Below, piece after piece: positions 9,156 to 56,564 of a DNA stretch of 64,000 bases (position 1 is its first letter; each line of letters starts with the position of its first letter). The position numbers and the translations under genes are program-made. The notes under the pieces were generated by a model, which saw only the letters and a list, made by a program, of their open reading frames with translations, ran no database searches and was not told the DNA's origin. This DNA is from an uncultured Gammaproteobacteria bacterium (GTDB lineage Bacteria; Pseudomonadota; Gammaproteobacteria; Steroidobacterales; Rariloculaceae): assembly GCA_963748045.1 (NCBI GenBank), contig CAVVIC010000018.1, forward strand, positions 37,021 to 101,020, given 5' to 3'.

Positions 9156-10145
9156 CGCGCGTTCCAACTCTCCCAACACCGCGCGGTCGAGCCAACTGCG
9201 CAGTCGATAGTTTTCGATGAACGCGCAGTGCCCGCCGTGCGGGAACACGTCGACAGACAGCGCACTCGTGACGGCGATATCGGCCAGATCTTCGATCGGA
9301 ATGACCGGATCGTCGGCCGCGGCGATGATGCGTGTCGGCACGGCCAGATTCGCCAAGACGTCCCCGGTGACCGCGTAGCCTTTCAGGTACGAGTCGAGAT
9401 CGGGGAAGCCTGCATAGCGCGTCGCAAAGAACTCGGTCGTCGCCGTAAGCGTCGGCAGCTTATGCAGATTGCCGAAATCGTAGAGCTCGGGAAAGCACGC
9501 GGCCTTCGCGAGCAGGCTTCGCCGCCAACGGCGAAGAAAGTACTTTCGATACACCCAGAGACCTTCCTCGAGCGCCCGCATCGTGCTGTGCGGCCGCAAC
9601 ACGGGACAAATCGCCACGACGCGCGCGAGGTCGATGCCCTCGGCCGGCGCTCGCGCCGCGACGCGTAGCGCGAAGTTGCCGCCGAGCGAGTGGCCCACGA
9701 GGAACGTGCGCGGCGCACGATGCGTGGCGACGATACGCTGCACGGCTCCGACGACTTCGGCGATACGGCACGAATGGAACAGCTCTCTATTCAACGCAAA
9801 CGTATTGCCGTGATCGCGGAAGTTCAGCCGGAAGATGTCGAAGCCCGCTTCGTACAGCCGGCCGCCGGTGGACAGGACGTAACTCGCCGCGGCGCTGCCC
9901 TCCCAGCCATGTAACAGAATCACGAGCCCGCGTGTGGTGCTCCGCTGCGGGCTGAAGTGGCCCAAAAGACGCACGCCGGCGCCGCAGTCGACGATCTCAT
10001 CCAAAGTCGCCGCCAGCATTGGGCTGGCCTGCCGGCCCAGCCATGGCTGACGAAACGGCCAGCCCGCCAGCAACGACTGCACATGGCGATGACGAAGCCC
10101 GACGGGGGGCTTGAATGCACTTACGACGTGCGGCGTACGCTGCAT
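9150..10145 (-). CDS. alpha/beta-fold hydrolase (YheT-like)
   Basis: Intact 331-aa ORF. Has the nucleophile elbow GHSLGGN, ...VILLHGWEGSAAASY..., and a C-terminal ...HGGHCAF... consistent with the YheT/ABHD1-3 type. Confidence 0.75.
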   Translation of the reverse strand: MQRTPHVVSAFKPPVGLRHRHVQSLLAGWPFRQPWLGRQASPMLAATLDEIVDCGAGVRLLGHFSPQRSTTRGLVILLHGWEGSAAASYVLSTGGRLYEAGFDIFRLNFRDHGNTFALNRELFHSCRIAEVVGAVQRIVATHRAPRTFLVGHSLGGNFALRVAARAPAEGIDLARVVAICPVLRPHSTMRALEEGLWVYRKYFLRRWRRSLLAKAACFPELYDFGNLHKLPTLTATTEFFATRYAGFPDLDSYLKGYAVTGDVLANLAVPTRIIAAADDPVIPIEDLADIAVTSALSVDVFPHGGHCAFIENYRLRSWLDRAVLGELERAL

Positions 10146-10235: not shown

Positions 10236-12287
10236 ATGCCGAGCTCCGCCCTCAATTTCGGATTGAAACGCCGGTCGCTCGCGTCAATGGGCGCGCTATT
10301 CGCGGGTGTCAGCGTCGTTTTCGCTGTCCTTTTGTACCTGCTGGCGACCGGCAGAGTGTCGCTTCTCACGTTCGGCGTCTTGCTGTTCATCGGCGTGCTG
10401 GTCGCGACCGGTATCGCATTGCTGTTGATTCACTCTCTGGCCGACGGCTTCGCAAGACCACTGCGGGAGGTTTCCGATGCGCTCGCAAACGCGGCTCGCG
10501 GCGACTTCGACTCGGTGGCGAACTTCGGCGAGGCCAGCGAGCTGCGCGATCTCGCGGGGGCGGTCAACGCCATGCGCACGAGCCTGCGCACCAGCACGAT
10601 CTCGCGTGACTACCTCGATAGGCTGCTGTCGAGCATGGGCGAGGCGCTGTTGATCACGGACATGAACGGCCGCATCGAGCGCGCGAACGCCGCGGCGGGC
10701 GAGCTGTTCGGCCATGCGGAAGGCGAGCTCATGGGCAAGCTCGCTGACGAGTTGATCCTTTCGAGCGACCGCCGCCGGGCGGAAGGCGTGGCCTCCCGAC
10801 CGCGCGAAGGCGCCGTGCTACGCCCCGACGGCTCGACCGTCAGCGTGTCGTACACGGTCGCGAACGTGCACAACGATCGCAACGACCTCGTCAGCAAGGT
10901 GTACGCAGCTCACAACATCGACGAACGCAAACGCGTCGAGCAGCGAATTCGCTATCTGGCGCGAACCGATTCGTTGACGAAGATCGCGAACCGCATGCAG
11001 TTCCAGCACATGCTGCAACAGGCGATCGCGCGTGCACGCAGGAGTCAGCAGTACGTCGCGATCCTGTATCTCGACGTCGACCGATTCAAGGACATCAACG
11101 ACACGTTTGGTCATTCCGCGGGCGACACGAGTCTCGAGATCTTCGCGCGGCGAATCCTCGCCGAACTAGGCGAAAACGCGCACGCCGGCCGCCTGGCAGG
11201 CGATGAGTTCGCGGTGCTGATCACGGGCTTCGAGCGCCTCGACGCAATGCAGAGGTATCTCGGGGAGCTCGCGCCGCGGTTGTTACAGGCGGCGGGCAAA
11301 CCGTTCCAGGTGCACGGCGAGGAGATCTTCCTGACGGCCAGCATGGGCATCGCGGTCTATCCCCGCGACGGCGACAACGTCATCGATCTGATCCGCAACG
11401 CCGACGCGGCGCTGTACCAGGCGAAGAAGGCCGGCGGCAACTGCTACGAGTGGTATTCGGCGGACATGAATACCGCGGCGGTCGAGCGGCTGATGCTGAA
11501 GAGCAAGCTGCGCCGCGCACTCGAGCGCGACGAGCTACGGATCCAGTACCAGCCGAAATACCGATTGAATACCGGCCGGCTCGAGGGCGCGGAGGCGTTG
11601 CTGCGCTGGGACTTGCCGGAGCGCGGCATCGTGTTGCCGTCGGACTTCGTACCGCTCGCCGAGGAAACGAACCTGATCCTGCAGCTCGGCGACTGGGTAC
11701 TGAACCGCGTGTGCGCGGACTATCGCGCGTGGCAGCGCACCGTGCCATCGCCATGCCGCGTATCCGTCAATTTGTCGCTGCGGCAGTTGCAGCAACGGCG
11801 GTTCCTCGATCAGGTGCGCGACACGTTTCGCGCGCACGGCGTCTCGCCTACCTCGCTCGAGCTCGAGATCACGGAAACGACGCTGATGGAAGATCCCGAG
11901 CGAACCGTCCGGATTCTCGATGCGTTATACGGTATGGGCCTGCACCTCGCGATCGACGACTTCGGCACCGGGTACTCGTCGTTGAGCGCACTGCAGCAGT
12001 TCCCGATCAACACCCTGAAGATCGACCAATCGTTCGTGCGTAACGTCGCCGTCGACCGGGACGACGCCGCGATCGTCGACGCGATCATTCAGATGGCACA
12101 CAGCTTGCGACTCGAAGTTGTGGCGGAAGGTGTGGAATCCGAGGCGCAGCTGGATTTCCTGCGCAAGCACGGTTGTGATTATGCGCAAGGGCACCTGTTC
12201 GGCGACCCCGTCAACGCGGACCAGTTCTGCGAACTGCTGATCTCCGAAGCCGGGGGCAGCGGCAAGTACCGAGCGCTGTTCGCCTGA
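10236..12287 (+). CDS. membrane-bound HAMP-PAS-GGDEF-EAL signalling protein (c-di-GMP turnover)
   Basis: Start at the ATG at 10236 (MPSSALNF...), followed by two TM segments. The GGDEF domain has the variant motif AGDEF (RLAGDEFAVLI). The EAL domain has EALLRW and DDFGTGYSSL motifs. Confidence 0.85.
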   Translation: MPSSALNFGLKRRSLASMGALFAGVSVVFAVLLYLLATGRVSLLTFGVLLFIGVLVATGIALLLIHSLADGFARPLREVSDALANAARGDFDSVANFGEASELRDLAGAVNAMRTSLRTSTISRDYLDRLLSSMGEALLITDMNGRIERANAAAGELFGHAEGELMGKLADELILSSDRRRAEGVASRPREGAVLRPDGSTVSVSYTVANVHNDRNDLVSKVYAAHNIDERKRVEQRIRYLARTDSLTKIANRMQFQHMLQQAIARARRSQQYVAILYLDVDRFKDINDTFGHSAGDTSLEIFARRILAELGENAHAGRLAGDEFAVLITGFERLDAMQRYLGELAPRLLQAAGKPFQVHGEEIFLTASMGIAVYPRDGDNVIDLIRNADAALYQAKKAGGNCYEWYSADMNTAAVERLMLKSKLRRALERDELRIQYQPKYRLNTGRLEGAEALLRWDLPERGIVLPSDFVPLAEETNLILQLGDWVLNRVCADYRAWQRTVPSPCRVSVNLSLRQLQQRRFLDQVRDTFRAHGVSPTSLELEITETTLMEDPERTVRILDALYGMGLHLAIDDFGTGYSSLSALQQFPINTLKIDQSFVRNVAVDRDDAAIVDAIIQMAHSLRLEVVAEGVESEAQLDFLRKHGCDYAQGHLFGDPVNADQFCELLISEAGGSGKYRALFA

Positions 12288-12362
12288 GCAGGTAATGCTT
12301 CAGTTCGCGGCCTTGAGGTATATTGCAGGCTCGCATCTTGAGAATTCCAACGAGGTAATGTC

Positions 12363-12713
12363 ATGAGAACGCTGACGTGTTGGTCCGTGGTTGCAGTTGC
12401 CGGCTGTTTCGCCATTGCCGCGGCGGCCTGCGAGAACCCCACCCTCGTCTCTATTCCCGAGGGCAAGGCGTCGACGCTCGAGCAGATGCTTGCAGCACAA
12501 GGCCAGGTCAAGACGTATCAGGCCAAGATGAACGAGTACCTGGCGTGCATCGATGCCGAGGCAGATACGCAGGGCGAAAAGGCGCCGAACGAATACAAGG
12601 CGTTGATGGTCAACCGGCACAATGCCGCCGTCGCCGAGATGGAAGGCGTGGCCGCCGCGTTCAACGACCAGATCAAGGCGTACAAGGCTGCCAATTCGGC
12701 GCCCGCCAAGTAA
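12363..12713 (+). CDS. small exported/lipoprotein-like hypothetical protein
   Basis: 116-aa ORF with a signal sequence ending ...FAIAAAAC, followed by a helical, Ala/Lys/Glu-rich body. A strong terminator follows. Confidence 0.6.
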   Translation: MRTLTCWSVVAVAGCFAIAAAACENPTLVSIPEGKASTLEQMLAAQGQVKTYQAKMNEYLACIDAEADTQGEKAPNEYKALMVNRHNAAVAEMEGVAAAFNDQIKAYKAANSAPAK

Positions 12714-12728
12714 CGATCCGCTTCGAAC

Positions 12729-12754
12729 CTGGCGGCGCCGGCCGGCGCCGCCAG
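12729..12754. terminator. bidirectional intrinsic terminator hairpin between convergent genes
   Basis: Perfect 26-nt GC palindrome, CTGGCGGCGCCGG/CCGGCGCCGCCAG, followed by cgTTTcaTTTTT on the + strand. It sits between the stops at 12713 (+) and 12759 (-). Confidence 0.7.
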
Positions 12755-12758
12755 CGTT

Positions 12759-12995
12759 TCATTTTTCCAGCGCTTCGATCTGACGCTTCAAGTCGTACTT
12801 GTCGTCGGTCACGATCCGTTCGAGCACCTTCACGCGCTCTTCCAGTTGATCGAGGCGCTGCTGCCAGGCAATTCGGTCCGCGTCGTCCGTACCGCGCAGA
12901 TTCTGCAGATTCTTCTGATGCATCCGCAGAGTCACGAGCTTGTAGGTGAATACGACAATCAGGATCGCGATTACAAATTCAAAAACAGGATTCAT
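12759..12995 (-). CDS. small single-TM coiled-coil protein, PspB-like architecture, last gene of the psp operon
   Basis: ATG at 12995 (MNPVFEFVIAILIVVFTYKLVTL...). It has an N-terminal TM helix, then ...LDQLEERVKVLERIVTDD..., which resembles the PspB motif ...MESRVNALETILDNE... Lies 42 nt downstream of pspC. Confidence 0.6.
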   Translation of the reverse strand: MNPVFEFVIAILIVVFTYKLVTLRMHQKNLQNLRGTDDADRIAWQQRLDQLEERVKVLERIVTDDKYDLKRQIEALEK

Positions 12996-13036
12996 CGGCG
13001 CCGACCTCCCCGTCCACGCCACGCAGGGCATTAGTC

Positions 13037-13432
13037 CTATTGATTCAGCTGCTGGAACTCGCGGTCGAGCTTGTAGCGGCTCGACGTCACGTACTTCTCG
13101 AGTCGTTGCAGCCGCACGTCGAGATCCCGAAACCGATAGCGCACGCCGGACAGGCTGCTGTGCGGATTCGAACGCACTTGCCTCTGCACCGGATCCGGAG
13201 CGCTACGCTCACCACCTTCGTAGCTTCTGACAGGCAACAGGAATCCGAGCACGACGTACGCGACGATCACGAGCGGCGCCGAGAATACCGCGCCGAGCGC
13301 GACGAGCACCCTCACGACGGTGACGTCGAAACCGAAATAGTCCGCGAGCCCGGCGCACACGCCGAAGATTTTGCCGCTGCTCGGAATCCGATACAGCCGA
13401 TTGACGAGTTTTGGGCCACGCTCAGCGTTCAT
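13037..13432 (-). CDS. pspC: envelope stress response membrane protein PspC
   Basis: ATG at 13432. MNAERGPKLVNRLYRIPSSGKIFGVCAGLADYFGFDVTVVRVLVAL... is the PspC N-terminal domain, followed by a TM helix and a C-terminal leucine-zipper-like tail. Confidence 0.85.
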   Translation of the reverse strand: MNAERGPKLVNRLYRIPSSGKIFGVCAGLADYFGFDVTVVRVLVALGAVFSAPLVIVAYVVLGFLLPVRSYEGGERSAPDPVQRQVRSNPHSSLSGVRYRFRDLDVRLQRLEKYVTSSRYKLDREFQQLNQ

Positions 13433-13484
13433 TACCGCACTCCGGAAGCAGTCGCGCATCGGTCACTTAAGGTGATGTGCACGA

Positions 13485-13694
13485 TCATAGCTTCTTCCTC
13501 CAATCGGGAACCTCGTTGTCCAGAATCGTTTCGAGCGCGTTCACACGGCTCTCCATAGCCTGGCTCTCCTTCCACAGATCCTCGAGCATCTGGTGCTCGT
13601 CGTCGGAGAGACCCTTCGTCGCTTTCCATTTGGTCGAGTAGTGCATGACCATGAACAGCGGCAGCACCACCGTCATGAACACGATAACGAGCAC
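13485..13694 (-). CDS. pspB: envelope stress response membrane protein PspB
   Basis: 69 codons from the GTG at 13694. Has a TM helix, then ...LSDDEHQMLEDLWKESQAMESRVNALETILDNEVPDWRKKL, collinear with E. coli PspB. Confidence 0.8.
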   Translation of the reverse strand: MLVIVFMTVVLPLFMVMHYSTKWKATKGLSDDEHQMLEDLWKESQAMESRVNALETILDNEVPDWRKKL

Positions 13695-13724
13695 GAACCA
13701 GGGCTGAACTGTCGTGCATGGCTG

Positions 13725-14417
13725 TCAGACCGGACCGCTACCGCCGCTCTTCTGGCCCGCGCGTTTCGACTTCAGCTCACGTAGTTCCTTCGCAACGGCA
13801 TCCTCGGCCTCGAGGTCTGCGAACTCGTCCTGCAAGCCCTTCTTGTTCTTGCTGCCCATGTCGTAGGCCTCGACGTAGGCCTCCATGTCGTCGACGCGCC
13901 GCTCGAACTGGTCGAACTTGATGAACGCATCGTCGATGCGCGCGCTGTGCAGGCGCTTGCGGACCTCGAGACGGCGGCTGGCCGTCTGCTGGCGGGCCAA
14001 AATGGCCTGTTGGCGCGTCTTGGCGTCCACGAGCTTCTCCTCGAGCCGCACGATGTCCTCATTCAGGCGCTCGAGCCCGTCGCCGAGCGACTGGTGTTGG
14101 CTGCGCAAAGCATCCGCCGCGGTCACGACGCGGCCCTTCTCGGCCAACGCCGCTTTGGCGAGATCCTCGCGTTCCTTGTCGAGCGCGAGCTCCGCCTTGG
14201 ACTGCCAATCGCGGGACTCGGTCTCGAGCCCCGTCAGCGTACGCGTGATCTCTTTGCGGTCGGCAATAGCGCGTGCCGCCGTCGAGCGCACCTCGACCAG
14301 GGTGTCTTCCATCTCCTGGATCATGAGGCGTACGAGCTTCTCCGGGTCCTCGGCCTTGTCGAGGATGGAGTTGATATTGGCATTCACGATATCGGTAAAG
14401 CGGGAGAAGATGCCCAT
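13725..14417 (-). CDS. pspA: phage shock protein A
   Basis: ATG at 14417, preceded by GAGGA. MGIFSRFTDIVNANINSILDKAEDPEKLVRLMIQEMEDTLVEVRS... is the canonical PspA/IM30 N-terminus, and the rest is coiled coil. Confidence 0.92.
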   Translation of the reverse strand: MGIFSRFTDIVNANINSILDKAEDPEKLVRLMIQEMEDTLVEVRSTAARAIADRKEITRTLTGLETESRDWQSKAELALDKEREDLAKAALAEKGRVVTAADALRSQHQSLGDGLERLNEDIVRLEEKLVDAKTRQQAILARQQTASRRLEVRKRLHSARIDDAFIKFDQFERRVDDMEAYVEAYDMGSKNKKGLQDEFADLEAEDAVAKELRELKSKRAGQKSGGSGPV

Positions 14418-22249: not shown

Positions 22250-22925
22250 TCAAAGGGCCGCGGGCAGAGGCTCGATCAGCACAGCGTCGTCGTTGCGCGG
22301 ATCGTTGACCGCAAGCGATACCGGCCACGCTTCGACCTGCGGCGCACGCGCCGCGATCTCTGCCGCTTCCGCAGCGCTCGTGTGCGGATCGAGCCAACGC
22401 GCCTGGTCGGCGCGCGCCACGAGCACCGGCATGCGGTCGTGGATCGGCGCGAGCGTCGCGTTGGCATCGGTCGTCACGATCACGCAGGTTTCGAGCGTCC
22501 GGCCGTCGGGTGCGCGCCAGCGCTCCCACAGGCCTGCGAACGCGAGCAACGGCTCGCCGTGGCCGCGGATGAAGAACGGCCGCCGCCGGCCCTGCACCGC
22601 TTCGCCCCATTCGTAGAAGCCGCTCGCCGCGATCAGGCAACGGCGTCGCGTGAACGCTTCGCGAAACGCCGGCTTGTCGGGCAGGCTATCGAGACGCGCG
22701 TTGATGAGCCGTTGGCCGATCGAGGCGTCCTTCGCCCAGAACGGCACGAGCCCCCACTTCAGGAGATCGAGCCGCCGCACGCCATCGCGCTCGCGCACGA
22801 CGGCCACGGCCTGCCCCGGCGTGACGTTATAGTGCGGCGGCAGCGCCTCGGCCACGGCCTCCGTGAGGCCGAAGTGCTCGGCGAGTCTGCGCGGACGTGG
22901 CGAACAGCGCGAACCGGCCGCACAC
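22250..22925 (-). pseudogene. SOS response-associated peptidase (SRAP/YedK family), frame interrupted once near the 5' end
   Basis: GTG-TGC-GGC-CGG-TTC at 22925 encodes (M)CGRFALF, the catalytic N-terminal Cys2 motif. After about 22890 the rest (...LAEHFGLTEA...PHYNVTPGQ...LKWGLVPFWAKD...INARLDSL...GFYEW...) continues in the frame of ORF 22250-24673. Length is 676 = 3n+1. Confidence 0.8.
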
Positions 22926-22926
22926 C

Positions 22927-23679
22927 TTACGCTCGGACGCCGCGACCGTAGTTCAGCAGCAGCAGCACGGCCGCGAACAATACCGCGGCCGAACCCACCA
23001 TGATCGCGTACGCCAAGCCGATCGGTATGTCCGACGAGCCGAGCATGCCGTAACGGAACGCGTTGACCATGTACAGGATCGGATTCGCCAGCGCGACCTT
23101 CTGCCAGAACGGCGACAGCAGCTTGATCGAGAAGAACACGCCGCCGAGATACGTCAGCGGCGTCAGCACGAACGTCGGGATGATCGAGATGTCGTCGAAC
23201 GACTTCGCGAAGATCGCGTTGAACAGGCCCGCAAGCGAAAACACGATGGCCGTGAGCAGGATCGTCGTGAACGTGATCAGCGGATGCACGACGTGCAGGT
23301 CCGCGAAGAACATCGCGACCACCACGACGAGGGCCGCCACGAGCAGGCCGCGCACGACGCCGCCGACGACGTAGCCCACCACGATCGTCGTGTACGCGAG
23401 CGGCGCGACGAGCATCTCCTCGAGATGCAGCATCAGCTTGCTCGAGAAGAACGACGACACCACGTTCGCGAACGAGTTCGTGATGACGGACATCATGATC
23501 AGGCCGGGCGCGATGAACGTCATGTACGACACTCCGTCCATGGTGCCGATGCGCCCGCCCACGAGGCTGCCGAAGATGATGAAGTACAGCGTCATCGTGA
23601 TGGCCGGCGGCACGATCGTCTGGATCCAGATTCGCACCACGCGGCGCGATTCCTTGCGCACGATCGTATTCAACCCCAC
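22927..23679 (-). CDS. ABC-2 type transporter permease (YadH-like)
   Basis: 250 codons from the GTG at 23679. ...RIWIQTIVPPAITMTLYFIIFGSLVGGRIG... is collinear with E. coli YadH. Six TM segments. Confidence 0.85.
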   Translation of the reverse strand: MGLNTIVRKESRRVVRIWIQTIVPPAITMTLYFIIFGSLVGGRIGTMDGVSYMTFIAPGLIMMSVITNSFANVVSSFFSSKLMLHLEEMLVAPLAYTTIVVGYVVGGVVRGLLVAALVVVVAMFFADLHVVHPLITFTTILLTAIVFSLAGLFNAIFAKSFDDISIIPTFVLTPLTYLGGVFFSIKLLSPFWQKVALANPILYMVNAFRYGMLGSSDIPIGLAYAIMVGSAAVLFAAVLLLLNYGRGVRA

Positions 23680-23736
23680 GAGGTTGATGCGCCACAGGTT
23701 CGGCGCGGCGATGCGGCGAGCAATGCGTTGCGTCGT

Positions 23737-24673
23737 TCATGCGGAGCGGCGCTCCTCTTTGTCTTTGTCCTGGACGAGACGGATGAACAGCTCCTCGAGA
23801 CGATTCGTCTTCGTGCGCATGCTGGCTACGTGCAGCGACTGCGCCGAGAGCTGCGCGAACACGTCGTTCAACCCCTGCCCTTTCATGACTTCGACCTCGA
23901 TCTCGTGCTCGTTCCGCAGCCGCGTGGGGTACGCCGCGAGCGCCGGTGCGGCACTGACGGGCTCCTTCAGGCTCAGCACGAACGTCTCGACCTGCAGCTT
24001 GCCGATGACGTTCTTCATCGTGTCGTTCTCGATGATCCTGACCTTCGTCGATGATCGCGATGTTCCGGCACAGGCTCTCGGCTTCGTCGAGGTAGTGCGT
24101 CGTCAGGATGATCGTGACGCCGGCCGCGTTGATCTCGCGCATGAACTCCCACATCGAGCGGCGGATCTCGATGTCGACGCCGGCCGTTGGCTCGTCGAGG
24201 ATCAGGAGGCGCGGCTCGTGGACGAGCGCGCGCGCGATCATGAGCCGGCGCTTCATGCCGCCCGACAGCGTGCGCGCGATGCCGAGGCGCTTTTCCCAAA
24301 GGTGCAGCGCCTTCAGGTACTTCTCGGTGCGCTCGCGCGCCACGTTCGCGGGCACGCCGTAGTACCCCGCCTGGTTGATCAGCGTGAGGTCGTTGCGCTC
24401 GAACATGTTCAGGTTGATCTCCTGCGGCACCACGCCGATGGAGGCCTTCGCGGCCTCGCGCGCGGTGTCGAGATCGTGCCCAAACACCTGGACCGAGCCG
24501 CCCGTTTTGCGGATCAGCGACGTGATGATGCCGATCGTCGTGGTCTTGCCGGCGCCGTTCGGGCCGAGCAGCGCGAAGAAATCGCCCTCGCGTACCGTGA
24601 GGTCGATGCCTTTCAGCGCTTCCACGCCGTTGCCGTAGACCTTGCGCAGGCCCTTGATGACTAACGCGTCCAT
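23737..24673 (-). pseudogene. ABC transporter ATP-binding protein (YadG-like), frame interrupted once
   Basis: Has Walker A GPNGAGKTT, signature LSGGMKRR and Walker B LLILDEP. After ...NIAIIDEGQ an extra base near 24037 moves the C-terminal domain (IIENDTMKNVIGKLQVETF...RLVQDKDKEERRSA*) into ORF 23737-24018. Length is 937 = 3n+1. Confidence 0.88.
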
Positions 24674-24709: not shown

Positions 24710-25340
24710 CTATTGTAAATGCGGAGGCAGCGGCGTGCCGCAATGAACGCTGGGCGTGCGTGTCAGGTGACCGGATGCGCGGGTCGCCGCTGGCGGCCAG
24801 TCGCGAGCGAGCCCGGGTTGCAGCGCAACGAGCGCGAGCTGCCGCCGCGACTCGGGCCGCGTGTCGGTCAGAATGCCGTGCCACAGCCAGTCCTGGTCGG
24901 TGAACGCGCAATGCACGATGTCCGACGCAGCGGCCAGACGCCCCAGGTCGGGCAGCGCGAGCGATCGCAGCAACTCGATCTGCGCGACGCCTAGGCCGAG
25001 CAGAAACTGCGCCTGGTACGGACTCTGGCGGCTCGTCTGGCGCGCGGCCAAGAGGATCGACAGAGCGAGCTCGTGATACCGCGGCATCGCGTTCGCCGAC
25101 CGCGGCCAGCTCCTGCTCGGCGCCGACGACGCCGTCGCACCGGACCTGAAACAGCGCGCGCGGAAACTGCGCGACGTTGTCGAGTAGCGTGCCGTCGGCT
25201 GCGCGCAGCGGCGGGTGCGCAGTCGCCGGCAAACCCAGGCAATCGCGTTCGACTCGGGCCCGTGATTGCAGGAAGCCTAAGAACGACCGATTCAGCTCGT
25301 GGACCGGTTCGAGGTGCTCCAGACGGACGGTGGCCGGCAT
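24710..25340 (-). pseudogene. FlhD-like protein, apparently two tandem FlhD-like repeats, frame interrupted once (or two fused genes)
   Basis: The N-frame (from the ATG at 25340) gives ...HELNRSFLGFLQSRARVERDCLGLP...FPRALFQVRCDG.... The frame of ORF 24710-25087 gives ...HELALSILLAARQTSRQSPYQAQFLLGLGVAQIELLRSLALPDLGRLAAASDIVHCAFTD.... The latter aligns ungapped to E. coli FlhD (recalled from memory) with 18/60 identities. Length is 631 = 3n+1. Confidence 0.5.
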
Positions 25341-25372
25341 GCGTCTTCAGTCCCCGTTTTGCGGCGTTTTTG

Positions 25373-25404
25373 CCATATATGGTCCTAAAATACCATTAGT
25401 GGTA
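25373..25404. promoter_or_regulatory. AT-rich divergent control region with two short palindromes
   Basis: CCATATATGG (25373-25382) and TACCAttagTGGTA (25391-25404) lie in the 80-bp gap between the FlhD-like and FlhC-like genes. This stretch is unusually A/T-rich for the window. Confidence 0.25.
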
Positions 25405-25420
25405 AATGTAGGCTAAGCAG

Positions 25421-26029
25421 GTGAATGTTGCCGAAATGGGGGGAAAGGGGAACATGAGGGCAACCGACGACCGTTATCGCCGCGAGCAGGCGCGGTTCAA
25501 TCTCGCCATGCGATTGATCGAGCACGAGGCACGAACCGGCACGATTCGCTATCTGACCGGGCTTCAGGACGATCGCATCCGCAAGCTGTACACGACCTAT
25601 TTCAAGTACGACGCGCAGCCGGTCCGGCGTCGCCGCGGGCGCTCGCCGACGCGCGTCGGGCCGCTCGTGCGGACGCCGCAACGCGCGCTCGAGTCGGGCG
25701 TGTTCGCGAACCTGCTGCTCGCGAACGGCCTGTTCTGCATCGAGCGTCCACCGGGGCCGAACCTCAAAGCCAACGTGGATCTCGGCCATCGGCTCTGCGA
25801 GTGCTTCGAGAGCTTCGAGCAGCTCATCCCCTATCATTCGCTGTCGTTCGAATGGGGCTGGAACCTGCTGCAGAGCATTCGGCGCGGCGACGAGCTCGGT
25901 ATCGCGCGCTGCGAGAAGTGCCGCGTCTGCTACGTGTTCGATCTGCTGTCGCTGCCGCGCTCTGCCTGCCCGGCCTGCCTGCTGTTCGAGCGCGAGCGCG
26001 AGGTACCATTCGAGCTGATGTCCGCGTGA
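25421..26029 (+). CDS. FlhC-family transcriptional regulator
   Basis: FNLAMRLIEHEARTGTIRYLTGLQDDRIRKLYTTY parallels E. coli FlhC [35 protein letters not shown]. The C-terminal Cys cluster CEKC...ACPAC parallels the FlhC zinc site CNCC...ACSLC. Start is uncertain (GTG 25421, ATG 25436 or ATG 25454). Confidence 0.65.
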   Translation: MNVAEMGGKGNMRATDDRYRREQARFNLAMRLIEHEARTGTIRYLTGLQDDRIRKLYTTYFKYDAQPVRRRRGRSPTRVGPLVRTPQRALESGVFANLLLANGLFCIERPPGPNLKANVDLGHRLCECFESFEQLIPYHSLSFEWGWNLLQSIRRGDELGIARCEKCRVCYVFDLLSLPRSACPACLLFEREREVPFELMSA

Positions 26030-26043
26030 GGTAGTCGGGCTCG

Positions 26044-26802
26044 ATGTGTCTCGTGGTCGTGGCGCACGCGGCGGCGGCGCGCTACAGGTTCGTGATCGCA
26101 GCCAACCGCGACGAGCTGCATGCGCGGCCCACGCGGCCGGCGGGCTGGTGGCCCGAGCCGCCGGGGCTCCTCGGCGGCCGCGACCTGCTGGCCGGCGGCA
26201 CCTGGCTCGGCGTGGATAAGCGCGGCCGTATCGCGGCCGTCACGAACGTGCGCGACGGCACGCCGCGCGAGGCGCCGCGCTCGCGCGGTGCGCTGGTCAC
26301 CGACTATCTCGGCGGCGACGAGCCGGCCGCGAACTTCGCGGCGCGATTGGCCGCGGCCGGCGCAGGGTTCGCCGCGTTCAATCTGCTGCTGCTCGACGGC
26401 GCCGAGCTGCGGTACACCAGCAACCGAGCGCCGCCGACGCGGCTCGCGCCGGGCGTGCACGCGCTCAGCAACGCGCCGCTCGGTGTCGACTGGCCGAAGA
26501 CCACCAGTGCGAAGGATGGCGTCACGCGCCTGCTCGCTTCGGCCGATCCGCTCGAGGCGTTGTTCGAGCTGCTCGCCACTCGCAGCACCGCGGATTCCGC
26601 AGAAGAGCGCTACCGCAGCGCGCACTTCGTGACCGGACCCGTGTACGGCACGCGCTGCTCGACGGTGATCCTGATCGACGATCGAGGCGTGCTGACGTTC
26701 GCCGAGCGTTCGTTCGATGCCGGCGGCTCGCGCACGGGCGAGGTTCGCGAGACGTTCGCGATCGAGCCGCAGCCGACCGCCTCAACCGACGCGCTGCGCT
26801 AG
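26044..26802 (+). CDS. NRDE-family protein (TANGO2-like)
   Basis: MCLVVVAH...VIAANRDELHARPT...GGTWLGV...RIAAVTNVR... contains the literal NRDE motif and the N-terminal Cys2 typical of the family. It starts 14 nt after the FlhC-like stop. Confidence 0.8.
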   Translation: MCLVVVAHAAAARYRFVIAANRDELHARPTRPAGWWPEPPGLLGGRDLLAGGTWLGVDKRGRIAAVTNVRDGTPREAPRSRGALVTDYLGGDEPAANFAARLAAAGAGFAAFNLLLLDGAELRYTSNRAPPTRLAPGVHALSNAPLGVDWPKTTSAKDGVTRLLASADPLEALFELLATRSTADSAEERYRSAHFVTGPVYGTRCSTVILIDDRGVLTFAERSFDAGGSRTGEVRETFAIEPQPTASTDALR

Positions 26803-28000: not shown

Positions 28001-29223
28001 CGGCTGCGGCTAAACCGATCGTTCTGGCGTTCTCCGGCGGGCTCGACACGTCGTTCTGCATTCCCTGGCTCAAGGAGACCTACGGCCGGCCGGTCGTGAC
28101 GGTGACGGTGAACTGCGGCGGCATCGACGCCGCGGCCGCGCGGCAGCTTCAAGAGCGCGCGAAGGCGCTCGGCGCCGTGGAGCACCACTTGATCGAGGCG
28201 CGGGGCGAGTTCTTCGACAAGGTCATCAAGTTCCTGATCATGGGCAACATCCGTCGCGGCAACATGTACCCGCTGTGCGTGGGCGCCGAGCGCGGCTTGC
28301 AGGCGAAGTACTTGGCTGAGCTCGCGAAGCAACTCGGCTCGGATACCGTGGCTCACGGCTGCACGGCGGCCGGCAACGACCAGGTGCGGTTCGAGATCGT
28401 GCTGAAGGCCGTGGCGCCCGAGCTCGTGATTCTAGCGCCCGTGCGCGATCACGCGTGGCAACGGCCGGCGCAGGTCAAGTTCCTCGAGGACCGCAAGATG
28501 TCCGTGCCGACGCGTGGGTCGGCCTACTCGACCAATCGCGGCCTCTGGGGCGTCACGATCGGCGGCAGCGAAACGCTCGACTCGAAGGGCAGCATTCCCG
28601 AGTCGGCGTGGGTGCTCTCGGCCGGTGCGCTCGACAAGCCGCAACCGTACTCCGAGATCGAAGTCGAGTTCGAGCGGGGCGTGCCCGTGGGGCTCGACGG
28701 CGCGCGGCTCGATGCCGTCGCGCTGATCGAGAAGCTCGAGACGGTCGCCGCGCGCTATGGCATCGGCCGCGGCATCCATTTGGGCGACACGATCATCGGC
28801 ACGAAGGGCCGCGTGGCGTTCGAAGCGCCCGCCGCCGAAGTCCTGATCAATGGGCATCGCGAGCTCGAGAAGCTCACGCTGACGCTGACGCAGTCGCAGG
28901 TCAAAGAGCCCGTGAGCCAGATCTACGGCCAGCTGATCCACGAAGGCAAACAGCTCGACCCGGCGTGCCGCGACATCGAAGCCCTGTTCGTGTCGTCGCA
29001 GTCGCGCGTCTCCGGCAAGGTCCGCGTGCAGCTGCGGCCCGGCAGCCTGTTCGTGCTGGGCGTGACCTCGCCGCACTCGCTGATGGCCGCGAGCCGCGGC
29101 AAGTACGGCGAAGCCGCGGGCGAGTGGACGGCGGCCGACGCACTCGGTTTCTCGAAGATCATGGCGTTGCCCGGGATGTTCCATACCCGGGCCGGAGGGG
29201 CAGTGACATGCGCTCGGTATTAG
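27997..29223 (+). CDS. argG: argininosuccinate synthase
   Basis: Intact 408 aa with the ATP-PPase motif AFSGGLDTS and ...HGCTAAGNDQVRFE.... The start overlaps the argR stop (ATGA). Confidence 0.92.
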   Translation: MTAAAKPIVLAFSGGLDTSFCIPWLKETYGRPVVTVTVNCGGIDAAAARQLQERAKALGAVEHHLIEARGEFFDKVIKFLIMGNIRRGNMYPLCVGAERGLQAKYLAELAKQLGSDTVAHGCTAAGNDQVRFEIVLKAVAPELVILAPVRDHAWQRPAQVKFLEDRKMSVPTRGSAYSTNRGLWGVTIGGSETLDSKGSIPESAWVLSAGALDKPQPYSEIEVEFERGVPVGLDGARLDAVALIEKLETVAARYGIGRGIHLGDTIIGTKGRVAFEAPAAEVLINGHRELEKLTLTLTQSQVKEPVSQIYGQLIHEGKQLDPACRDIEALFVSSQSRVSGKVRVQLRPGSLFVLGVTSPHSLMAASRGKYGEAAGEWTAADALGFSKIMALPGMFHTRAGGAVTCARY

Positions 29224-30282
29224 TCGACAAGATCGCGTCGGTCGCGCTGCAGGCCGACCTGGGCCAGGAGATCCGCGTCGCGGACGAGATCCCGTGCGAG
29301 GAAGGCGTGTTGATCGCGGTCGAGGTGCTGAACAACAAGTCGCGCTACAACACGCTCGAGCTCACGAGCGGCCGCATGGCTGAGGTCAAGAAGGGCGACG
29401 TCGTGGTCGGCGCACTGGGCCATCGCAAAGCGCTGTTCGGCTATTCGGGCCATCTCCCCACCGAGCTGAAGCCCGGCGACATCGTGCAACTCCTGAACTT
29501 GGGCGGCGTGGTCGGCATCTGCGACTCGATCAATCCCTCGCAACGGCGAACCGTTCGACTGCCGCGTGCTCGGCGTCGTGCTCGACTTCCCGTACTTGGG
29601 ACAGCGCGTCGGCGTGCCCGCGCGAGTATCGGCGCAGCCGCTGCAGACGGATGTCCCGCTCACGATTCAGGGCGTGCCCGTGGTCGCAATTGCCGGCACC
29701 TGCATGAACTCGGGCAAGACGGCCGCCGCCTGTGCGATCGTGAGCCGGTTCCGCCACAACGGCCTCGTCGTCGATGCGTTCAAGTCGACCGGCGTCGCGC
29801 TGCGCCGCGACATTCTCGCGATGGAAGACTCGGGCGCGCGGCACATCGCGATGTTCTCGGACTTCGGCATCGTCGCGACGACGTCGAAGAACGCGCCGGC
29901 GCTCACTCGCAGTCTGCTGAACGAGCTCGGCGAGCAGAAACCCGACGCGATCGTGTTCGAGCTCGGCGACGGCCTGCTCGGCGCGTACGGCGTCGAGGCC
30001 ATCCTGCGCGACAAGGAAATCTGTAACTCGATTACGGCCATGGTGCTGTGCGCGAACGATCCGGTCGGGGCCTGGGGCGGCGCGAAGCTGCTGCGCGAGG
30101 AGTTCGGCATCGAGCCCACCGTGATCTCGGGCCCGGCCACGGACAACCAGGTCGGCATCGACATCATCAGGGACCGTGCGAACGTCGCGGCGTTGAACGC
30201 CATGACGCACGCGGCCGAGCTCGGCGACTTGCTCCAGTCCGCGATCGGTCTTAAGCACCGGGCCGCGAAGGCGAGCGCATGA
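29208..30282 (+). pseudogene. uncharacterised two-domain protein X with a Walker-A-like P-loop, embedded in the arg operon, frame interrupted once
   Basis: The ATG at 29208 is preceded by GGAGGGG. The N-terminal part is MRSVLVDKIASVALQADLGQEIRVADEIPCEEGVLIAVEVLNN...GICDSINPS. After an extra base near 29545 it continues NGEPFDCRVLGVVLDFPYLGQ...VVAIAGTCMNSGKTAAACAIVSRF... to 30282. It overlaps argG by 16 nt and argC by 4 nt. Length is 1075 = 3n+1. Confidence 0.6.
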
Positions 30283-45928: not shown

Positions 45929-46309
45929 CGTAAATCGCTCCCTCTCTTACGCGAATCGCGCCGCTTAGTATCCGTATCGTCCATATTTCAGGCTGATGAA
46001 CCGTTGAAGTGGGGATAACATCCACCGCTATCGCACGAATGGTATCTATGTGGGAACATTCGACTTTTCGAGTGCCCGACGCGATTCATTGTCCCAGATT
46101 CGCCTTTTCCGCCCCGCCCGACCGATTCTGACCGCGACCGCGACCGAAAGCGCGACCCGCGGCCGACCCCCTCGCCGTGTTCGAATTCCGTCGGTGAAAT
46201 CGTTCGGGAGCCGCCGTTTTCGACCGGCCGCTCGGCCCGTGCTTCCGGTGACGAGGTTCTGCTACCATCCAAAAATTACAGTTCGTGTCCCGGGTTTAGG
46301 AGCGTATAG

Positions 46310-46759
46310 GTGATGAAACGGATGTTCTGGGTGCTGGCGTTGGCCGGTGGCCTTCTCAGTCAGCAGGCATGGAGCCAACAGTGTTCCCTTGCGATCGAAG
46401 CGAATGACCAGATTCAGTTCAATACCAAAGAGCTGCACGTCAAAAAGAGCTGCAAGGAAGTCACGCTCACACTGAAGCACGTGGGCCAACTCGCCGCCAA
46501 CGTCATGGGCCACAACTGGGTGCTCAGTGCAACGTCCGATTACCAGGCGATTGCACAAGCCGGACAAGCCGCGGGTGCGCCGAATTATCTCCCGACTGGA
46601 GACGCGCGCATCCTTGCCTCCACCGATACGATCGGTGGCGGTCAGCAGGTGTCGCTCAAGTTCGACACCTCGAAGCTGACGGTGGGCGGCGACTACACGT
46701 TTTTCTGCTCGTTTCCTGGTCACTTTGTACTGATGAACGGCAAGTTGATCGTCGAATAA
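46310..46759 (+). CDS. azu: azurin (blue copper protein)
   Basis: A signal peptide is followed by QCSLAIEANDQIQFNTKELHVKKSCKEVTLTLKHVGQLAANVMGHNWVL...YTFFCSFPGHFVLMNGKL. This is collinear with Pseudomonas azurin, and the Cu ligands (His, Cys, His, Met) are in place. Confidence 0.9.
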   Translation: MMKRMFWVLALAGGLLSQQAWSQQCSLAIEANDQIQFNTKELHVKKSCKEVTLTLKHVGQLAANVMGHNWVLSATSDYQAIAQAGQAAGAPNYLPTGDARILASTDTIGGGQQVSLKFDTSKLTVGGDYTFFCSFPGHFVLMNGKLIVE

Positions 46760-46853
46760 AGTATTTGTCCGCGCCACAGCGGGCCGCCGCTTCTTAAGTA
46801 CATTTAGATCACGACGGCAGTCGTGTGCCTGACGTTTTGGGGGGTTGTTCGGT

Positions 46854-48222
46854 ATGGTGGCTCTTGCTGTCGTCATCGTCCTGCTTGTTGTCGGCTCGCT
46901 GATCTTTCACTTCGCGAGCCCTTGGTACTTCACTCCGCTCGCTTCCAACTGGAGCACCATCGACTTCACCGTCGACGTCACGTTCTGGGTCACCGGCGTG
47001 GTGTTCGTCGCGGTCAACCTCTTCACCGCCTACTGCGTCTGGCGGTTTCGCGCTCGTAAAGGCAACAAGGCTCACTACGAGCCCGAGAGCACGAAGCTCG
47101 AGATTTGGCTCACGGTATTCACGTCGGTCGGCGTCGCCGCGATGCTGACGCCCGGACTGTTCGTCTGGGCGGCATTCGTCACGGTGCCGAAGGACGCGAA
47201 GGCGTTCGAGGCCGTCGGCAAACAGTGGAACTGGACCTTCCGCCTGCCGGGCGCCGACGGGCAGCTCGGCGCGAGCGACGTCCGCTACATGACGGCCGAC
47301 AATCCGTTAGGTATAGACCCGACCGACGCGAAAGGTCAGGACGACATCGTCGTCGCAAGCCCGATCCTGCATCTGCTCCGGGACCAACCGGTCAATGCGC
47401 TACTGCGCTCGACCGACGTGCTGCACGACTTCGCCGTGCCCGAGTTCCGCGTGAAGATGGATCTGGTGCCGGGGCTCGTGACCTACCAGTGGTTCACGCC
47501 GACCAAACCGGGCACGTACGAGATCCTGTGCGAAGAGCTCTGCGGCTCCGGCCACTTTGCGATGCGCGGCAAGATCGTCGTCGACGAGGCGCCCGCGTAC
47601 CAGGCCTGGCTCGCGACACAACCAACGTTCGCGGCCACGCAAGCGCGACCTGCCGGCAACGCCACCGCGGGCGCCGCCAACTACGCTGTCTGCTCCGCGT
47701 GCCACGGCGCACAGGGCGAAGGCAATCAGCAGCTGAACGCGCCGAACCTCGCGGGCCTCGATGGCTGGTACATCCGCCGGCAGATCCAGAGCTATCAGCA
47801 GCGCATCCGCGGCACCGACAAAGGCGATCAGTTCGGCGTGCAAATGGCGCCGATGGCCAACATCGTTGCCGATCCGGCCACGCTCGAGAACGTGATCGCC
47901 CACATCGCCACCCTGCCGGACAAGGCGCCGCAAGCCACGGTCACGGGCGACGCCGCGCGCGGCCGCAGGCTGTTCCAGACCTGCGCGCTATGCCACGGAG
48001 ATAACGGCGCCGGCACGTGGGCCACGAACGCGCCGCGTCTAGCCGGGCGCAGCGACTGGTACTTGAAACGCCAGCTCGAATACTTCAAGAGTGGCGTGCG
48101 GGGCAAGCACCCCGACGACCTCTACGGCGCACAGATGAACTTGATGGTCGGCGCCTTGATTCGGCGAACACGCCATCGACGACGTCGTCGCCTACATCAA
48201 TACGCTGCACGAAGCGAACTAA
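46854..48222 (+). pseudogene. coxB: cytochrome c oxidase subunit II fused to a C-terminal dihaem cytochrome c domain, frame interrupted once near the 3' end
   Basis: Two TM helices. The CuA site is CEELCGSGHFAM. Two CxxCH motifs (CSACH, CALCH) follow. After ...GAQMNLMVGAL (about 48160) the conserved end FGEHAIDDVVAYINTLHEAN* is in the +1 frame. Length is 1369 = 3n+1. Confidence 0.85.
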
Positions 48223-50708: not shown

Positions 50709-51397
50709 ATGGCGCAATCGCAAAGCTACCGCAACGCACGCCGAAGCAGAGACGGCGTGGAAGTCCCTCGCTACCGACTGGTCCGCGGACAAACAAACGT
50801 TCCGCGTGCCATGGGGCAAGGCGATGATGTGGATCTTCCTGCTCTCCGACACGTTCATCTTCACGTGCTTCCTCACGGGCTACATGAACGTGCGCGTATC
50901 GACGGCAGTACCCTGGCCGAACCCGAGCGAGGTCTTTGGCCTCGACGTCTTCGGCGTCAGCGTGCCGTTGCTACTGATCGGCATCATGACGTTCGACCTC
51001 ATCACGAGCAGCGGCACGATGGCGCTCGCCGTCAACTTCGGCTATCGCCGCGATCGCGGTCGCACGGCCGCGCTGATGTTCATGACGGCGGCGTTCGGTG
51101 CGATCTTCGTTGCGATGCAGGCGTTCGAGTGGACCAAGCTCATCACCGCAGGAAGGCATCCGCCCCTGGGGCAACCCGATGGGCGCGTCACAGTTCGGCG
51201 CCACCTTCTTCATGATCACGGGGTTCCACGGCCTGCACGTGTCCGCGGGCGTCATATATCTGTGCATCGTGGCGTTCAAGGTGCTGCGCGGCGACTACGA
51301 AAAGAGGGGCTACGAGATCGTCGAGATCGCCGGCCTGTACTGGCACTTCGTCGACCTCGTCTGGGTGTTCATCTTCGCGTTCTTCTATCTCTGGTAG
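50709..51397 (+). pseudogene. cytochrome c oxidase subunit III, two frame interruptions
   Basis: The ATG at 50709 shifts within about 15 nt to KATATHAEAETAWKSLATDWSADKQTFRVPWGKAMMWIFLLSDTFIF...AMQAFEWTKLITA. A second shift near 51150 leads to EGIRPWGNPMGASQFGATFFMITGFHGLHVSAGVIYL...YWHFVDLVWVFIFAFFYLW*. Length is 689 = 3n+2. Confidence 0.85.
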
Positions 51398-51406
51398 GGG
51401 CCTACG

Positions 51407-51766
51407 ATGTCAGCAGCGACCGGACAACAGCATCCGCTAAAGCTCTACTTCTGGATCTGGGGATTGCTGTTCCTATTCAGCGGATTTTCCTACGCCACGG
51501 ACTTCATGCCGCACGGCTACTTCCGCTGGGGCTTGATCCTGCTGTTCATGGTGGCGAAGGCGGGCTTGATCATCGCGATCTTCATGCACATGGCGTGGGA
51601 GCGAAAAGCGCTGATCTGGGCCATCTTAGGGCCGCCGGTCGTGCTGCTCGTGTTGATCGCGCTCATGGTCATCGAAGGCGACTACACCGAATTCACACGC
51701 CTCACCTCGTTCTCGGCGCCGATCGTGCCCTCTGGGCACGCCGCCGCCGAGGAGGCGCACCACTAG
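51407..51766 (+). CDS. cytochrome c oxidase subunit IV-family small membrane protein
   Basis: 119 aa with three TM segments. ...LLFMVAKAGLIIAIFMHMAWERK... matches the prokaryotic subunit IV (CoxD/CyoD-like) pattern and position. Confidence 0.7.
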   Translation: MSAATGQQHPLKLYFWIWGLLFLFSGFSYATDFMPHGYFRWGLILLFMVAKAGLIIAIFMHMAWERKALIWAILGPPVVLLVLIALMVIEGDYTEFTRLTSFSAPIVPSGHAAAEEAHH

Positions 51767-51815
51767 CACGCGGCCCGCACGGCCCGGAAGGCTCATTCGA
51801 TGTTGATCTGGTTGA

Positions 51816-52109
51816 TTGGCGTCGTCGATCTTCATCCTGATCTGGGGCAAGCTCTGGCGCGCGCTGCCCGCGGCTGGCTTCGGCGTGCTGATCGGGTTAC
51901 CGTTGGCGTGGGTCGCGTCGATTCTCATCACACCGTACATCACAGGCATGAAATCAATACCGGTTTGGTTACCGCCGCTGCCGCTCGTGATCATCGCGGT
52001 CACGTTGTTCGTGTTCGGCGTGATCACTTGGCTGCGCGCCGATAAGCTCACGCCGCTGAAAGACGCGGACGCGCACGACGACCACGGTCACGGCGACGGT
52101 CATCACTGA
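51816..52109 (+). CDS. small membrane protein with a His/Asp-rich C-terminus
   Basis: 97 codons from a TTG start, with 2-3 TM segments and the tail ...DADAHDDHGHGDGHH. Start is uncertain (an ATG at 51800 is in another frame). Confidence 0.4.
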   Translation: MASSIFILIWGKLWRALPAAGFGVLIGLPLAWVASILITPYITGMKSIPVWLPPLPLVIIAVTLFVFGVITWLRADKLTPLKDADAHDDHGHGDGHH

Positions 52110-52131
52110 CCATCGTCCGCGCTAGTCTGCG

Positions 52132-52530: not shown

Positions 52531-52611
52531 ACGCTACCGTAGGCTGGCTATAGTAATCGCACGCCTCCGCCGGCGATCTCGTCGCCGGCCGGGCGGAGCG
52601 GGGGAACGAAC

Positions 52612-53014: not shown

Positions 53015-53025
53015 GCCGGCCTCTG

Positions 53026-56548: not shown

Positions 56549-56564
56549 CCGCGAAGGAAATCAC

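Follow-up and report, generated by a model that had tools for sequence, protein, structure and literature searches.

What does a regulator of the FlhDC type do where nothing flagellar surrounds it? FlhD4C2 is the flagellar master regulator of Enterobacteria and Betaproteobacteria. The question is raised by a locus in a 64,000-nucleotide (nt) stretch of contig CAVVIC010000018.1 (assembly GCA_963748045.1, positions 37,021 to 101,020), referred to below as the window, from an uncultured gammaproteobacterium of the Rariloculaceae. Here a gene for an FlhD-like protein and a gene for an FlhC-like protein are read away from each other across a shared intergenic region, the former followed by the genes of an ABC exporter and the latter by a gene of the TANGO2 family. 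The original prediction, made from the sequence, saw in the pair a non-flagellar master regulator with an unknown regulon. On balance, we favor the reading that the pair is a vertically inherited, chromosomal FlhDC-type heteromeric regulator that acts locally, with nothing flagellar around it.

The FlhC-like gene lies at 25454..26029 on the forward strand and encodes 191 amino acids (aa). It had been predicted as an open reading frame (ORF) at 25421-26029 with FlhC-like character and a C-terminal CxxC...CxxC cluster. Both features were confirmed and the start was not: all homologs begin with MRATDDRY at ATG 25454, and the GTG at 25421, which would give a 202-aa ORF, is not the start. The family comprises 839 close homologs of about 191 aa and 619 clusters at the 50% identity level (E ≤ 1e-3). 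The window protein scored below the cut-offs of the Pfam FlhC family (PF05280; E 0.16, 12.1 bits against 27) and of the NCBIfam FlhC model (NF009365; 11.5 bits against 216). Because the profile of close relatives found no FlhC match in the PDB, the link to FlhC needed distant members of the family. In an alignment of 66 such members (28-54% identity), 46 matched FlhC in Pfam (best E 3e-10) and 49 in NCBIfam, and the profile made from them matched the solved FlhC chains at full length (8j56_C, E 2e-12; 2avu_E, E 4e-11), which belong to the FlhD4C2 structures of Cupriavidus necator (PDB 8J56) and E. coli (PDB 2AVU). With hhalign, 159 columns could be aligned to E. coli FlhC at 97% probability (E 5e-11), and this alignment matched the four cysteines. 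The Cys4 zinc-ribbon site, CxxC...CxxC, thereby falls on the zinc ligands of E. coli FlhC; C153, C156 and C175 are invariant among the 66 distant members and C172 is at least 90% conserved. The AlphaFold2 (AF2) model of the protein (predicted local distance difference test score, pLDDT, 84.6; predicted template-modeling score, pTM, 0.81) gave three Foldseek matches only at E ≤ 1e-3, namely 2avu_E, 8j56_F and 8j56_C, with target-normalized template-modeling (TM) scores of 0.69-0.73; the FlhC fold is present in this predicted structure. By profile-profile comparison, fold and the four-cysteine site, the protein belongs to the FlhC superfamily.

The partner gene occupies 24763..25340 on the reverse strand, from ATG 25340 to the TGA at 24765-24763 that closes it once two inserted bases are removed. 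In relatives it encodes 191 aa; in the window, two 1-nt insertions (25082 and 24793) disrupt the reading frame. The span originally given for it, 24710-25340, is 631 nt long and hence not a single reading frame: frame A is open from 25340 down to 24015, and frame B (25087-24710) holds the FlhD-like peptide. A conceptual fusion of the two frames, used as the query of the homolog search, retrieved 70 homologs. Their length is mostly 187-205 aa, in nearly every case precisely 191 aa, and the majority carry a precomputed PF05247 match; they read through the junction (...GERDA-RYHELALS...) and end in ...RDWPQRRPAHPxx. In tblastn, a 92%-identical homolog placed residues 1-86 in frame -3 (25340-25083) and residues 87-183 in frame -1 (25081-24791), and the DNA alignment of the window with three relatives contained exactly two single-base insertions, at 25082 (GCC-G-CGG) and 24793 (CCG-C-CAG). 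Close relatives at 85-92% identity have the gene intact. It had first been asked whether the junction near 25085-25140 was one gene, a frameshift or two genes; it is one gene with assembly-type frameshifts, since the single 191-aa ORF in every relative and the single-base insertions rule out two separate genes, and the sequence tail down to 24710 is an out-of-frame read-through artifact. The divergent gene with an FlhD-like domain thus stands as predicted, with its lower limit moved from 24710 to 24763.

That domain forms the C-terminal half of the protein (aa 87-183; 24791..25081, reverse strand). It matched Pfam FlhD (PF05247) with E 2e-4 and 21.8 bits, below the gathering score of 27; across the Pfam searches, E-values of 6e-5 to 2e-4 were obtained (21.8-24.4 bits against the same cut-off), and among 45 relatives, 23 matched at E ≤ 0.01 (best 1.3e-5). 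The NCBIfam FlhD model (NF002783) gave E 6e-4 and 19.8 bits, below its cut-off of 90. The family profile found FlhD chains in the PDB (8j56_A, E 1e-4; 1g8e and 5hxg, E 2e-3), and all of the top nine Foldseek PDB matches of the AF2 model (pLDDT 82, pTM 0.78) were FlhD chains, with a probability of 0.98-1.00 and 21-28% identity. These structural matches concern the C-terminal half, with target-normalized TM scores of 0.64-0.78 and weak E-values (0.15-0.4). The predicted structure contains the FlhD fold in this half, which is a remote FlhD homolog below the curated thresholds. The superfamily assignments first proposed for both proteins are upheld by profile, PDB-profile, hhalign and Foldseek matches, that of FlhD by the PDB profile and the structure matches, with Pfam remaining below threshold. 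A few D-like relatives also matched DUF2857, the domain of the regulator subunit BisC, on their FlhD-like half (E 0.006-0.14); we judged these matches too weak to build a domain assignment on.

The FlhD-like protein is not a single-domain one: in its AF2 model, a disordered linker (residues 73-83) connects two helical halves, and the 70 homologs are mostly 187-205 aa long. D-like partners in distant clades are longer (203-225 aa), and hhalign related them to the window family with 27-94% probability over one or both halves, four of the six with at least 84% over both. The two-domain D architecture is kept in distant clades.

The N-terminal half (aa 1-86; 25083..25340, reverse strand) had been taken for a second, more diverged FlhD-like repeat. 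It has no Pfam or NCBIfam match, and comparison of the two halves by hhalign with 45 close sequences detected nothing (probability 0.2%). With a broader alignment of 119-125 sequences, consisting of the D-like ORFs from 62 genomes with six distant loci added, the halves aligned over 61-66 colinear columns with a score of 20-21 (P ~0.002), in the register originally proposed (HELNR..FL with HELAL..IL, CLGLP...LR with LLGL...LR, and FPRALF with ..VV.CAF). Column-shuffled controls scored 10 ± 2; the real score lies about 5 standard deviations above them and was reached by 1 of 200 and 1 of 150 shuffles. In the AF2 model, each half runs from a long helix through short helices to a short strand, and since the pTM of 0.78 is high despite the disordered linker, the model suggests that the halves pack on each other. 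That the N-terminal half is an old, strongly diverged copy of the C-terminal domain is plausible, not proven: the weak signal in the predicted register speaks for a second repeat, the missing Pfam match and the marginal statistics against it. On those statistics and the AF2 secondary-structure pattern, it is also plausible that one chain would mimic the FlhD homodimer as a pseudo-dimer.

Decayed FlhD-like genes were seen in two marine metagenome-assembled genomes (MAGs), at 9606-9931 of locus L039 and 9820-10057 of locus L040, with an apparently intact FlhC-like gene in both. The L039 gene has an internal deletion and is accompanied by a single operator box; L040 retains a C-terminal remnant only, and its intergenic region is gone.

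The control region shared by the two genes spans 113 bp (25341..25453) with a GC content of 48%, falling to 34% in the core. It had been described as an 80-bp AT-rich region with two palindromes, of which the AT-rich core and the palindromes (25373-25382 and 25393-25402) were confirmed and the length was not. In an alignment of 59 genomes, a 44-bp block (25373..25416), which we take as operator plus core promoters, showed column identities of 0.75-1.0 at most positions and 0.42-0.66 at some, compared with 0.3-0.6 in the flanks, and this conservation persists even where protein identity has fallen to 29-54%. Two CCAN4TGG dyads lie within the block. Box 1, CCATATATGG (25373..25382), is a perfect 10-bp palindrome. 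Box 2, CCATTAGTGG (25393..25402), is an imperfect dyad whose center lies 20 bp from that of box 1, the two being separated by TCCTAAAATA; in some relatives it is a perfect CCATATATGG or CCATTTATGG, and its CCA and TGG arms are conserved at 0.85-1.0. An automated repeat search did not list these 10-bp palindromes, and both were read directly from the sequence. Box 1 is the sole match in the 64 kb at ≤1 mismatch, and of the occurrences of CCA[AT]4TGG in 1.08 Mb of loci, about 55 fall in the 120 nt preceding the C-like gene and one lies elsewhere. Because the motif occurs essentially only in the intergenic region of the pair, it points to a local, autoregulatory role.

The promoters are less evident, and a consensus scan of the intergenic region returned no consensus sigma-70 promoter or terminator. 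Conservation across the 59 genomes marks two putative -10 elements. One, TAGGCT (25409..25414, forward strand), would serve the FlhC-like and TANGO2 genes; with T1 and T6 invariant and A2 conserved at 88%, it has a TAnnnT pattern. The other, TATTTT (25387..25392, reverse strand), would serve the FlhD-like and ABC genes; T1, A2 and T6 are 97-98% conserved and the third position is variable. From these we infer two back-to-back promoters with weak -35 regions. Box 2 is located between both putative -10 elements, and box 1 covers the site where the D-side transcript presumably starts and precedes the presumed C-side start by ~40-45 bp. Elsewhere in the family, the same place is taken by other motifs: Steroidobacteraceae carry a different repeat, TTGCTATTTTTAT(A/C)GCA, and a clade at 46% identity has ACCATATATGGT-like boxes in another arrangement. 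Such clade-specific motifs are as expected if the site is a cognate one that co-evolves with the proteins. In L039 and L040, the FlhD-like gene and the boxes decay together.

Two other assignments were considered for this region. A sigma-54 promoter reading of TGGCAAAAACGCCGC was dropped, as the GG/GC elements are not conserved in relatives. ArgR is encoded nearby, and a reading of the dyads as ArgR boxes was rejected by eye, CCATATATGG being unlike the ARG box.

The mechanism that we propose is as follows. The D-like and C-like proteins would assemble in the manner of FlhD4C2, here as (tandem-D)2C2. The complex would bind the two CCAN4TGG dyads in its own 113-bp region, where they overlap the two weak back-to-back promoters, and would thereby regulate its own synthesis and set the expression of both flanking transcription units. 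On the FlhD side, this unit would consist of the FlhD-like gene, a YadGH-type ABC exporter and sometimes SRAP; on the FlhC side, of the FlhC-like gene, sometimes a NudC-like gene, and TANGO2. Support for the hetero-oligomer comes from strict gene adjacency and joint decay. A more specific version, which we offer as a tentative possibility, is that a single-chain FlhD pseudo-dimer and the FlhC-like zinc protein form a (D-D)2C2 switch dedicated to a housekeeping or stress module of TANGO2, NudC-like protein and YadGH-type exporter, long kept in basal Gammaproteobacteria.

The layout of the locus was surveyed in one genome per species, giving 62 loci, with six more distant loci added (~70 genomes). 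The carriers are Ca. Rariloculales (including Candidatus Rariloculaceae), Steroidobacteraceae and unclassified gammaproteobacterial MAGs; the 62 loci come from uncultured Gammaproteobacteria MAGs of soil, fen, sediment and sea water. The divergent FlhD-like/FlhC-like pair is kept in the ~70 genomes, with an intergenic region of ~110-130 bp. Synteny over the 62 loci, mapped by tblastn of ten neighboring proteins, followed one order throughout: GspB on the forward strand; SRAP (in part of the loci only), the ABC-2 permease, the ABC ATPase and the FlhD-like gene on the reverse strand; FlhC-like and TANGO2 on the forward strand; an esterase on the reverse strand; and ArgR and ArgG on the forward strand. 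The block of ABC, FlhD-like and FlhC-like genes was found in nearly all loci where the contig reaches, and TANGO2 follows the FlhC-like gene in the majority of the 62 loci and is missing in five. The original prediction had paired the FlhC-like gene with an NRDE/TANGO2 gene 14 nt away and had suggested a survey of this arrangement; both the divergent layout and the TANGO2 link proved to be widely kept. Identity to the window across loci is 54-96% for the C-like protein versus 29-89% for the D-like protein, the former being far better conserved. The divergent pair is also retained at greater distance, by family members at 36-48% identity in Steroidobacteraceae and other MAGs. Of these loci, L068, L072, L074 and L076 have a NudC-like NUDIX gene and TANGO2 after the C-like gene, and L068, L070 and L074 have ABC genes after the D-like gene.

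Given both superfamily assignments, the pair might be an ordinary flagellar FlhDC, strongly diverged and located away from the flagellar genes. An flhDC operon need not adjoin its class 2 target genes, and the NCBI pipeline names some relatives "flagellar transcriptional regulator FlhC". However, the scores of 11.5 and 19.8 bits do not come near the equivalog cut-offs (216 and 90), the genes are divergent and form no flhDC operon, two domains are fused in the D subunit, the conserved candidate operator is present at the pair's own promoter only, and the pair remains linked to ABC, TANGO2 and NudC-like genes from clade to clade. We searched by tblastn with 48 E. coli queries, mainly proteins of the flagellum, chemotaxis and the motor, together with FlhC, FlhD and YedK as a control. 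The search found the control (as SRAP) and no flagellar, chemotaxis or motor homolog in the 64-kb window, and the flagellar, chemotaxis and motor queries had no match within 10 kb of the pair in the ~70 genomes (1.2 Mb of related loci). We therefore regard an ordinary FlhDC as unlikely. A remnant or domesticated activator of a mobile element is very improbable. The type is represented by SetCD of SXT/R391 integrative and conjugative elements (ICEs), AcaCD of IncA/C plasmids and SgaCD of SGI1, non-flagellar heteromeric activators of the FlhDC family according to the abstracts of PMC4344509, PMC4207636 and PMC8373056, and by BisDC of ICEclc, a two-subunit activator that activates its own operon in a feedback loop (PMC7423338). 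The known non-flagellar FlhDC-type regulators are of this type (PMC4344509, PMC4207636, PMC7423338), and the weak DUF2857 matches of a few relatives (E 0.006-0.14) recall the Pfam domain of BisC (PMC7423338). Against this, tblastn found no match for either protein in 72,556 plasmids, neither had a PHROG or PADLOC match, and none of the loci contains integrase or conjugation genes. The flanks are instead housekeeping genes, the arg operon and GspA/GspB, and the same synteny (arg operon, GspA/GspB, YadGH-type ABC) extends across order-level divergence, therefore indicating long vertical inheritance. The absence of flagellar, chemotaxis and ICE genes from the 64 kb, as first noted, is thus borne out by the tblastn result and the lack of plasmid or PHROG relatives; what is not supported of the original proposal is the master role, the motif being essentially confined to the pair's own intergenic region.

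A different kind of explanation leaves the proteins as they are and takes the 44-bp block for core promoters plus the site of another (global) regulator, with the pair acting elsewhere, or else takes the window copy for a pseudogene. The most conserved stretches do fit -10 elements, one subclade keeps the proteins without the palindromes, and the FlhD-like gene, which carries two frameshifts in the window, can decay (L039 and L040). A global site would be expected to recur, though, and apart from the single occurrence counted above, neither the remaining 1.08 Mb of loci nor the remainder of the window contains the dyads; the motif also changes clade by clade together with the pair, and close relatives at 85-92% identity are intact. 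As to the frameshifts, they are spread window-wide at ~1 per 2 kb, which is typical of assembly error. In a compositional frame plot of the 64 kb (GC 66.8%), ~30 frame changes on the same strand had no nearby stop codon, for example at 24039, 25082, 24793, 29533, 43097 and 51147-57650, and the genes concerned include the ABC ATPase and one gene of the arg operon. The plot recovers the changes at ~24044 and ~25092, which were independently confirmed, and misses that at ~24793. Fragmented tblastn patterns were also seen in several MAG assemblies of relatives, such as L007. Because the stop-less frame changes are spread over the 64 kb and several MAG relatives show such fragmentation too, the frameshifts of the window are most likely assembly errors and not gene decay. 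Taken together, this explanation appears doubtful to us.

The locally acting, vertically inherited regulator that we prefer has several points to contend with. The scores of the two proteins do not reach the curated Pfam and NCBIfam thresholds. Complex formation, DNA binding and transcription start sites are inferred from the sequence, and the promoter assignments from conservation patterns only. One Rariloculaceae subclade retains both proteins and the -10-like elements and has lost the palindromes, so that the pair may have acquired a different binding specificity in this subclade, or else the boxes are the site of some other factor. The similarity of the N- and C-terminal halves is marginal, one shuffle in 150-200 reaching the same score. 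Locus L075 has no adjacent ABC genes or TANGO2, so the target genes are not fixed. Finally, our search covered the window and related loci, and a distal regulon, flagellar genes included, may exist.

We next describe the genes on either side of the pair in the window. The TANGO2/NRDE-family gene (26044..26802, forward strand; 252 aa, Pfam TANGO2 E 7e-58) begins 14 nt after the stop of the FlhC-like gene. Its product starts with Met-Cys, which fits the proposal of human TANGO2 as a cysteine N-terminal nucleophile (Ntn) hydrolase (PMC13044924). On the other side, 89 nt downstream of the FlhD-like gene, lies the gene of a DrrA/NodI-like ABC ATPase (23740..24673, reverse strand; NCBIfam drrA subfamily, E 4e-72), which adjoins the FlhD-like gene in essentially all loci and is frameshifted in the window at ~24039, its tblastn segments falling in two frames. 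It is followed by the ABC-2 permease gene (22927..23715, reverse strand; 93% identity by tblastn, with the N-terminal 7 residues unaligned), whose ortholog in L001 matches NCBIfam NF011648 (PRK15066) with E 1e-113; PRK15066 is the YadH type of permease. The last gene of the FlhD-side string encodes a YedK-like SRAP protein (22250..22888, reverse strand; 92% identity to the L001 SRAP by tblastn, E 2e-17 to E. coli YedK). No consensus promoter or terminator pattern was found in the 89-nt gap between the FlhD-like and ABC genes. Because of this, and of the 14-nt gap before TANGO2, we take the FlhD-like and ABC genes, and likewise the FlhC-like gene and TANGO2, as probably co-transcribed units.

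In the distant loci, the NudC-like protein has a NUDIX-like domain, a Zn ribbon and a NUDIX domain, and its gene immediately precedes TANGO2 (L068 7624-9280, L072 9653-11432, L074 8017-9695 and L076 7951-9677 for the two together); the window clade has TANGO2 only. In one lineage (L072 7809-9482), a hipBA-type toxin-antitoxin pair (HTH_31 and HipA) is inserted between the FlhC-like gene and NUDIX/TANGO2. In the Steroidobacteraceae loci L070 and L071 (4953-6009), the FlhD-like gene and the ABC ATPase gene are separated by two inserted genes of the same strand, one for a bactofilin and one for a 200-aa protein without known domain. Proteins P0407, P0444 and P0400 (L068/L069) are those named "flagellar transcriptional regulator FlhC" or "FlhC family transcriptional regulator" by the NCBI pipeline; their loci have the same non-flagellar synteny (ABC, NUDIX, TANGO2 and arg operon), and this naming is likely an annotation trap.

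Further from the pair, a conserved protein of ~352-357 aa with no Pfam or NCBIfam match is encoded within the arg operon, in the argG-argC interval, in all loci examined (window ~29220-30282, forward strand; L001 3065-4138; L002 3052-4125); the window copy appears frameshifted near 29533. Patches of lower GC (58-61% versus the 67% average) occur at 12001-14000 and 46001-47000, and large parts of 7.7-10.5, 12.1-13.5, 45.9-46.9 and 61.1-62.4 kb look non-coding in the frame plot. Rfam returned no RNA family anywhere in the window, these patches included. The assembly looks indel-rich, perhaps from long reads, and ORF-based readings anywhere in the window need care.

How does the pair compare with the systems already described? 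With FlhD4C2 it shares both subunit folds, as judged from predicted models (TM 0.69-0.73 for the FlhC-like protein and 0.64-0.78 for the C-terminal half of the D protein), the conserved and aligned Cys4 zinc site, and the adjacency of the two genes. It differs in that both proteins lie below Pfam and NCBIfam thresholds and that the D subunit has 191 aa with an extra N-terminal domain, whereas canonical FlhD is a single-domain homodimer of ~100-120 aa. The genes are divergent, whereas E. coli flhD and then flhC are co-transcribed; no flagellar or chemotaxis neighbors were found in the ~70 genomes, and the pair is associated with an ABC exporter and TANGO2, plus a NudC-like gene in certain clades. 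With SetCD, AcaCD and SgaCD, as characterized in their abstracts, the pair has in common that an FlhDC-type heteromeric regulator serves something other than flagella. Those regulators are encoded by mobile elements and, by the same abstracts, activate transfer genes, whereas the pair described here has no plasmid relative or transfer genes and its chromosomal synteny is conserved at the order level. The abstracts concerned make no mention of a D subunit with two fused domains (PMC4344509, PMC4207636, PMC8373056). Of the BisDC subunits, BisC contains DUF2857 and is similar to FlhC according to Phyre2; BisD contains a ParB domain, and an FlhD domain cannot be detected in it (PMC7423338). BisDC resembles the pair as a two-subunit activator, whose feedback on its own operon parallels the autoregulation proposed here, and through the weak DUF2857 matches of a few FlhD-like relatives (E 0.006-0.14); BisDC is ICE-borne, and the DUF2857 similarity falls on the D-like protein here but on BisC there. 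Literature searches returned no description of such a pair, nor of Rariloculales biology.

The pair is probably a new non-flagellar branch of the FlhDC-type regulator family. FlhDC-type regulators have so far been known as flagellar master switches and, in diverged forms, as activators of conjugative elements; a third branch that is chromosomal, vertically inherited and divergent, with a fused two-domain D subunit, would widen both the uses and the architectures of this heteromeric regulator, and if our reading is true it would be the first FlhDC branch that is chromosomal, non-flagellar and non-mobile. The pipeline label "flagellar transcriptional regulator FlhC" on members in a non-flagellar context can mislead annotation, and the strongly conserved 44-bp candidate operator offers a testable binding-site model. 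The function of TANGO2 is disputed: a role in heme trafficking was proposed (PMC10470608) and challenged (PMC12782551), acyl-CoA binding was proposed (PMC11867700), and a cysteine Ntn-hydrolase was suggested (PMC13044924). The recurrent link of the pair to TANGO2, joined by a NudC-like gene in some clades, is a regulatory clue to this disputed role, and it would, if our reading is true, provide a genetic handle on the function of the bacterial TANGO2 homologs.

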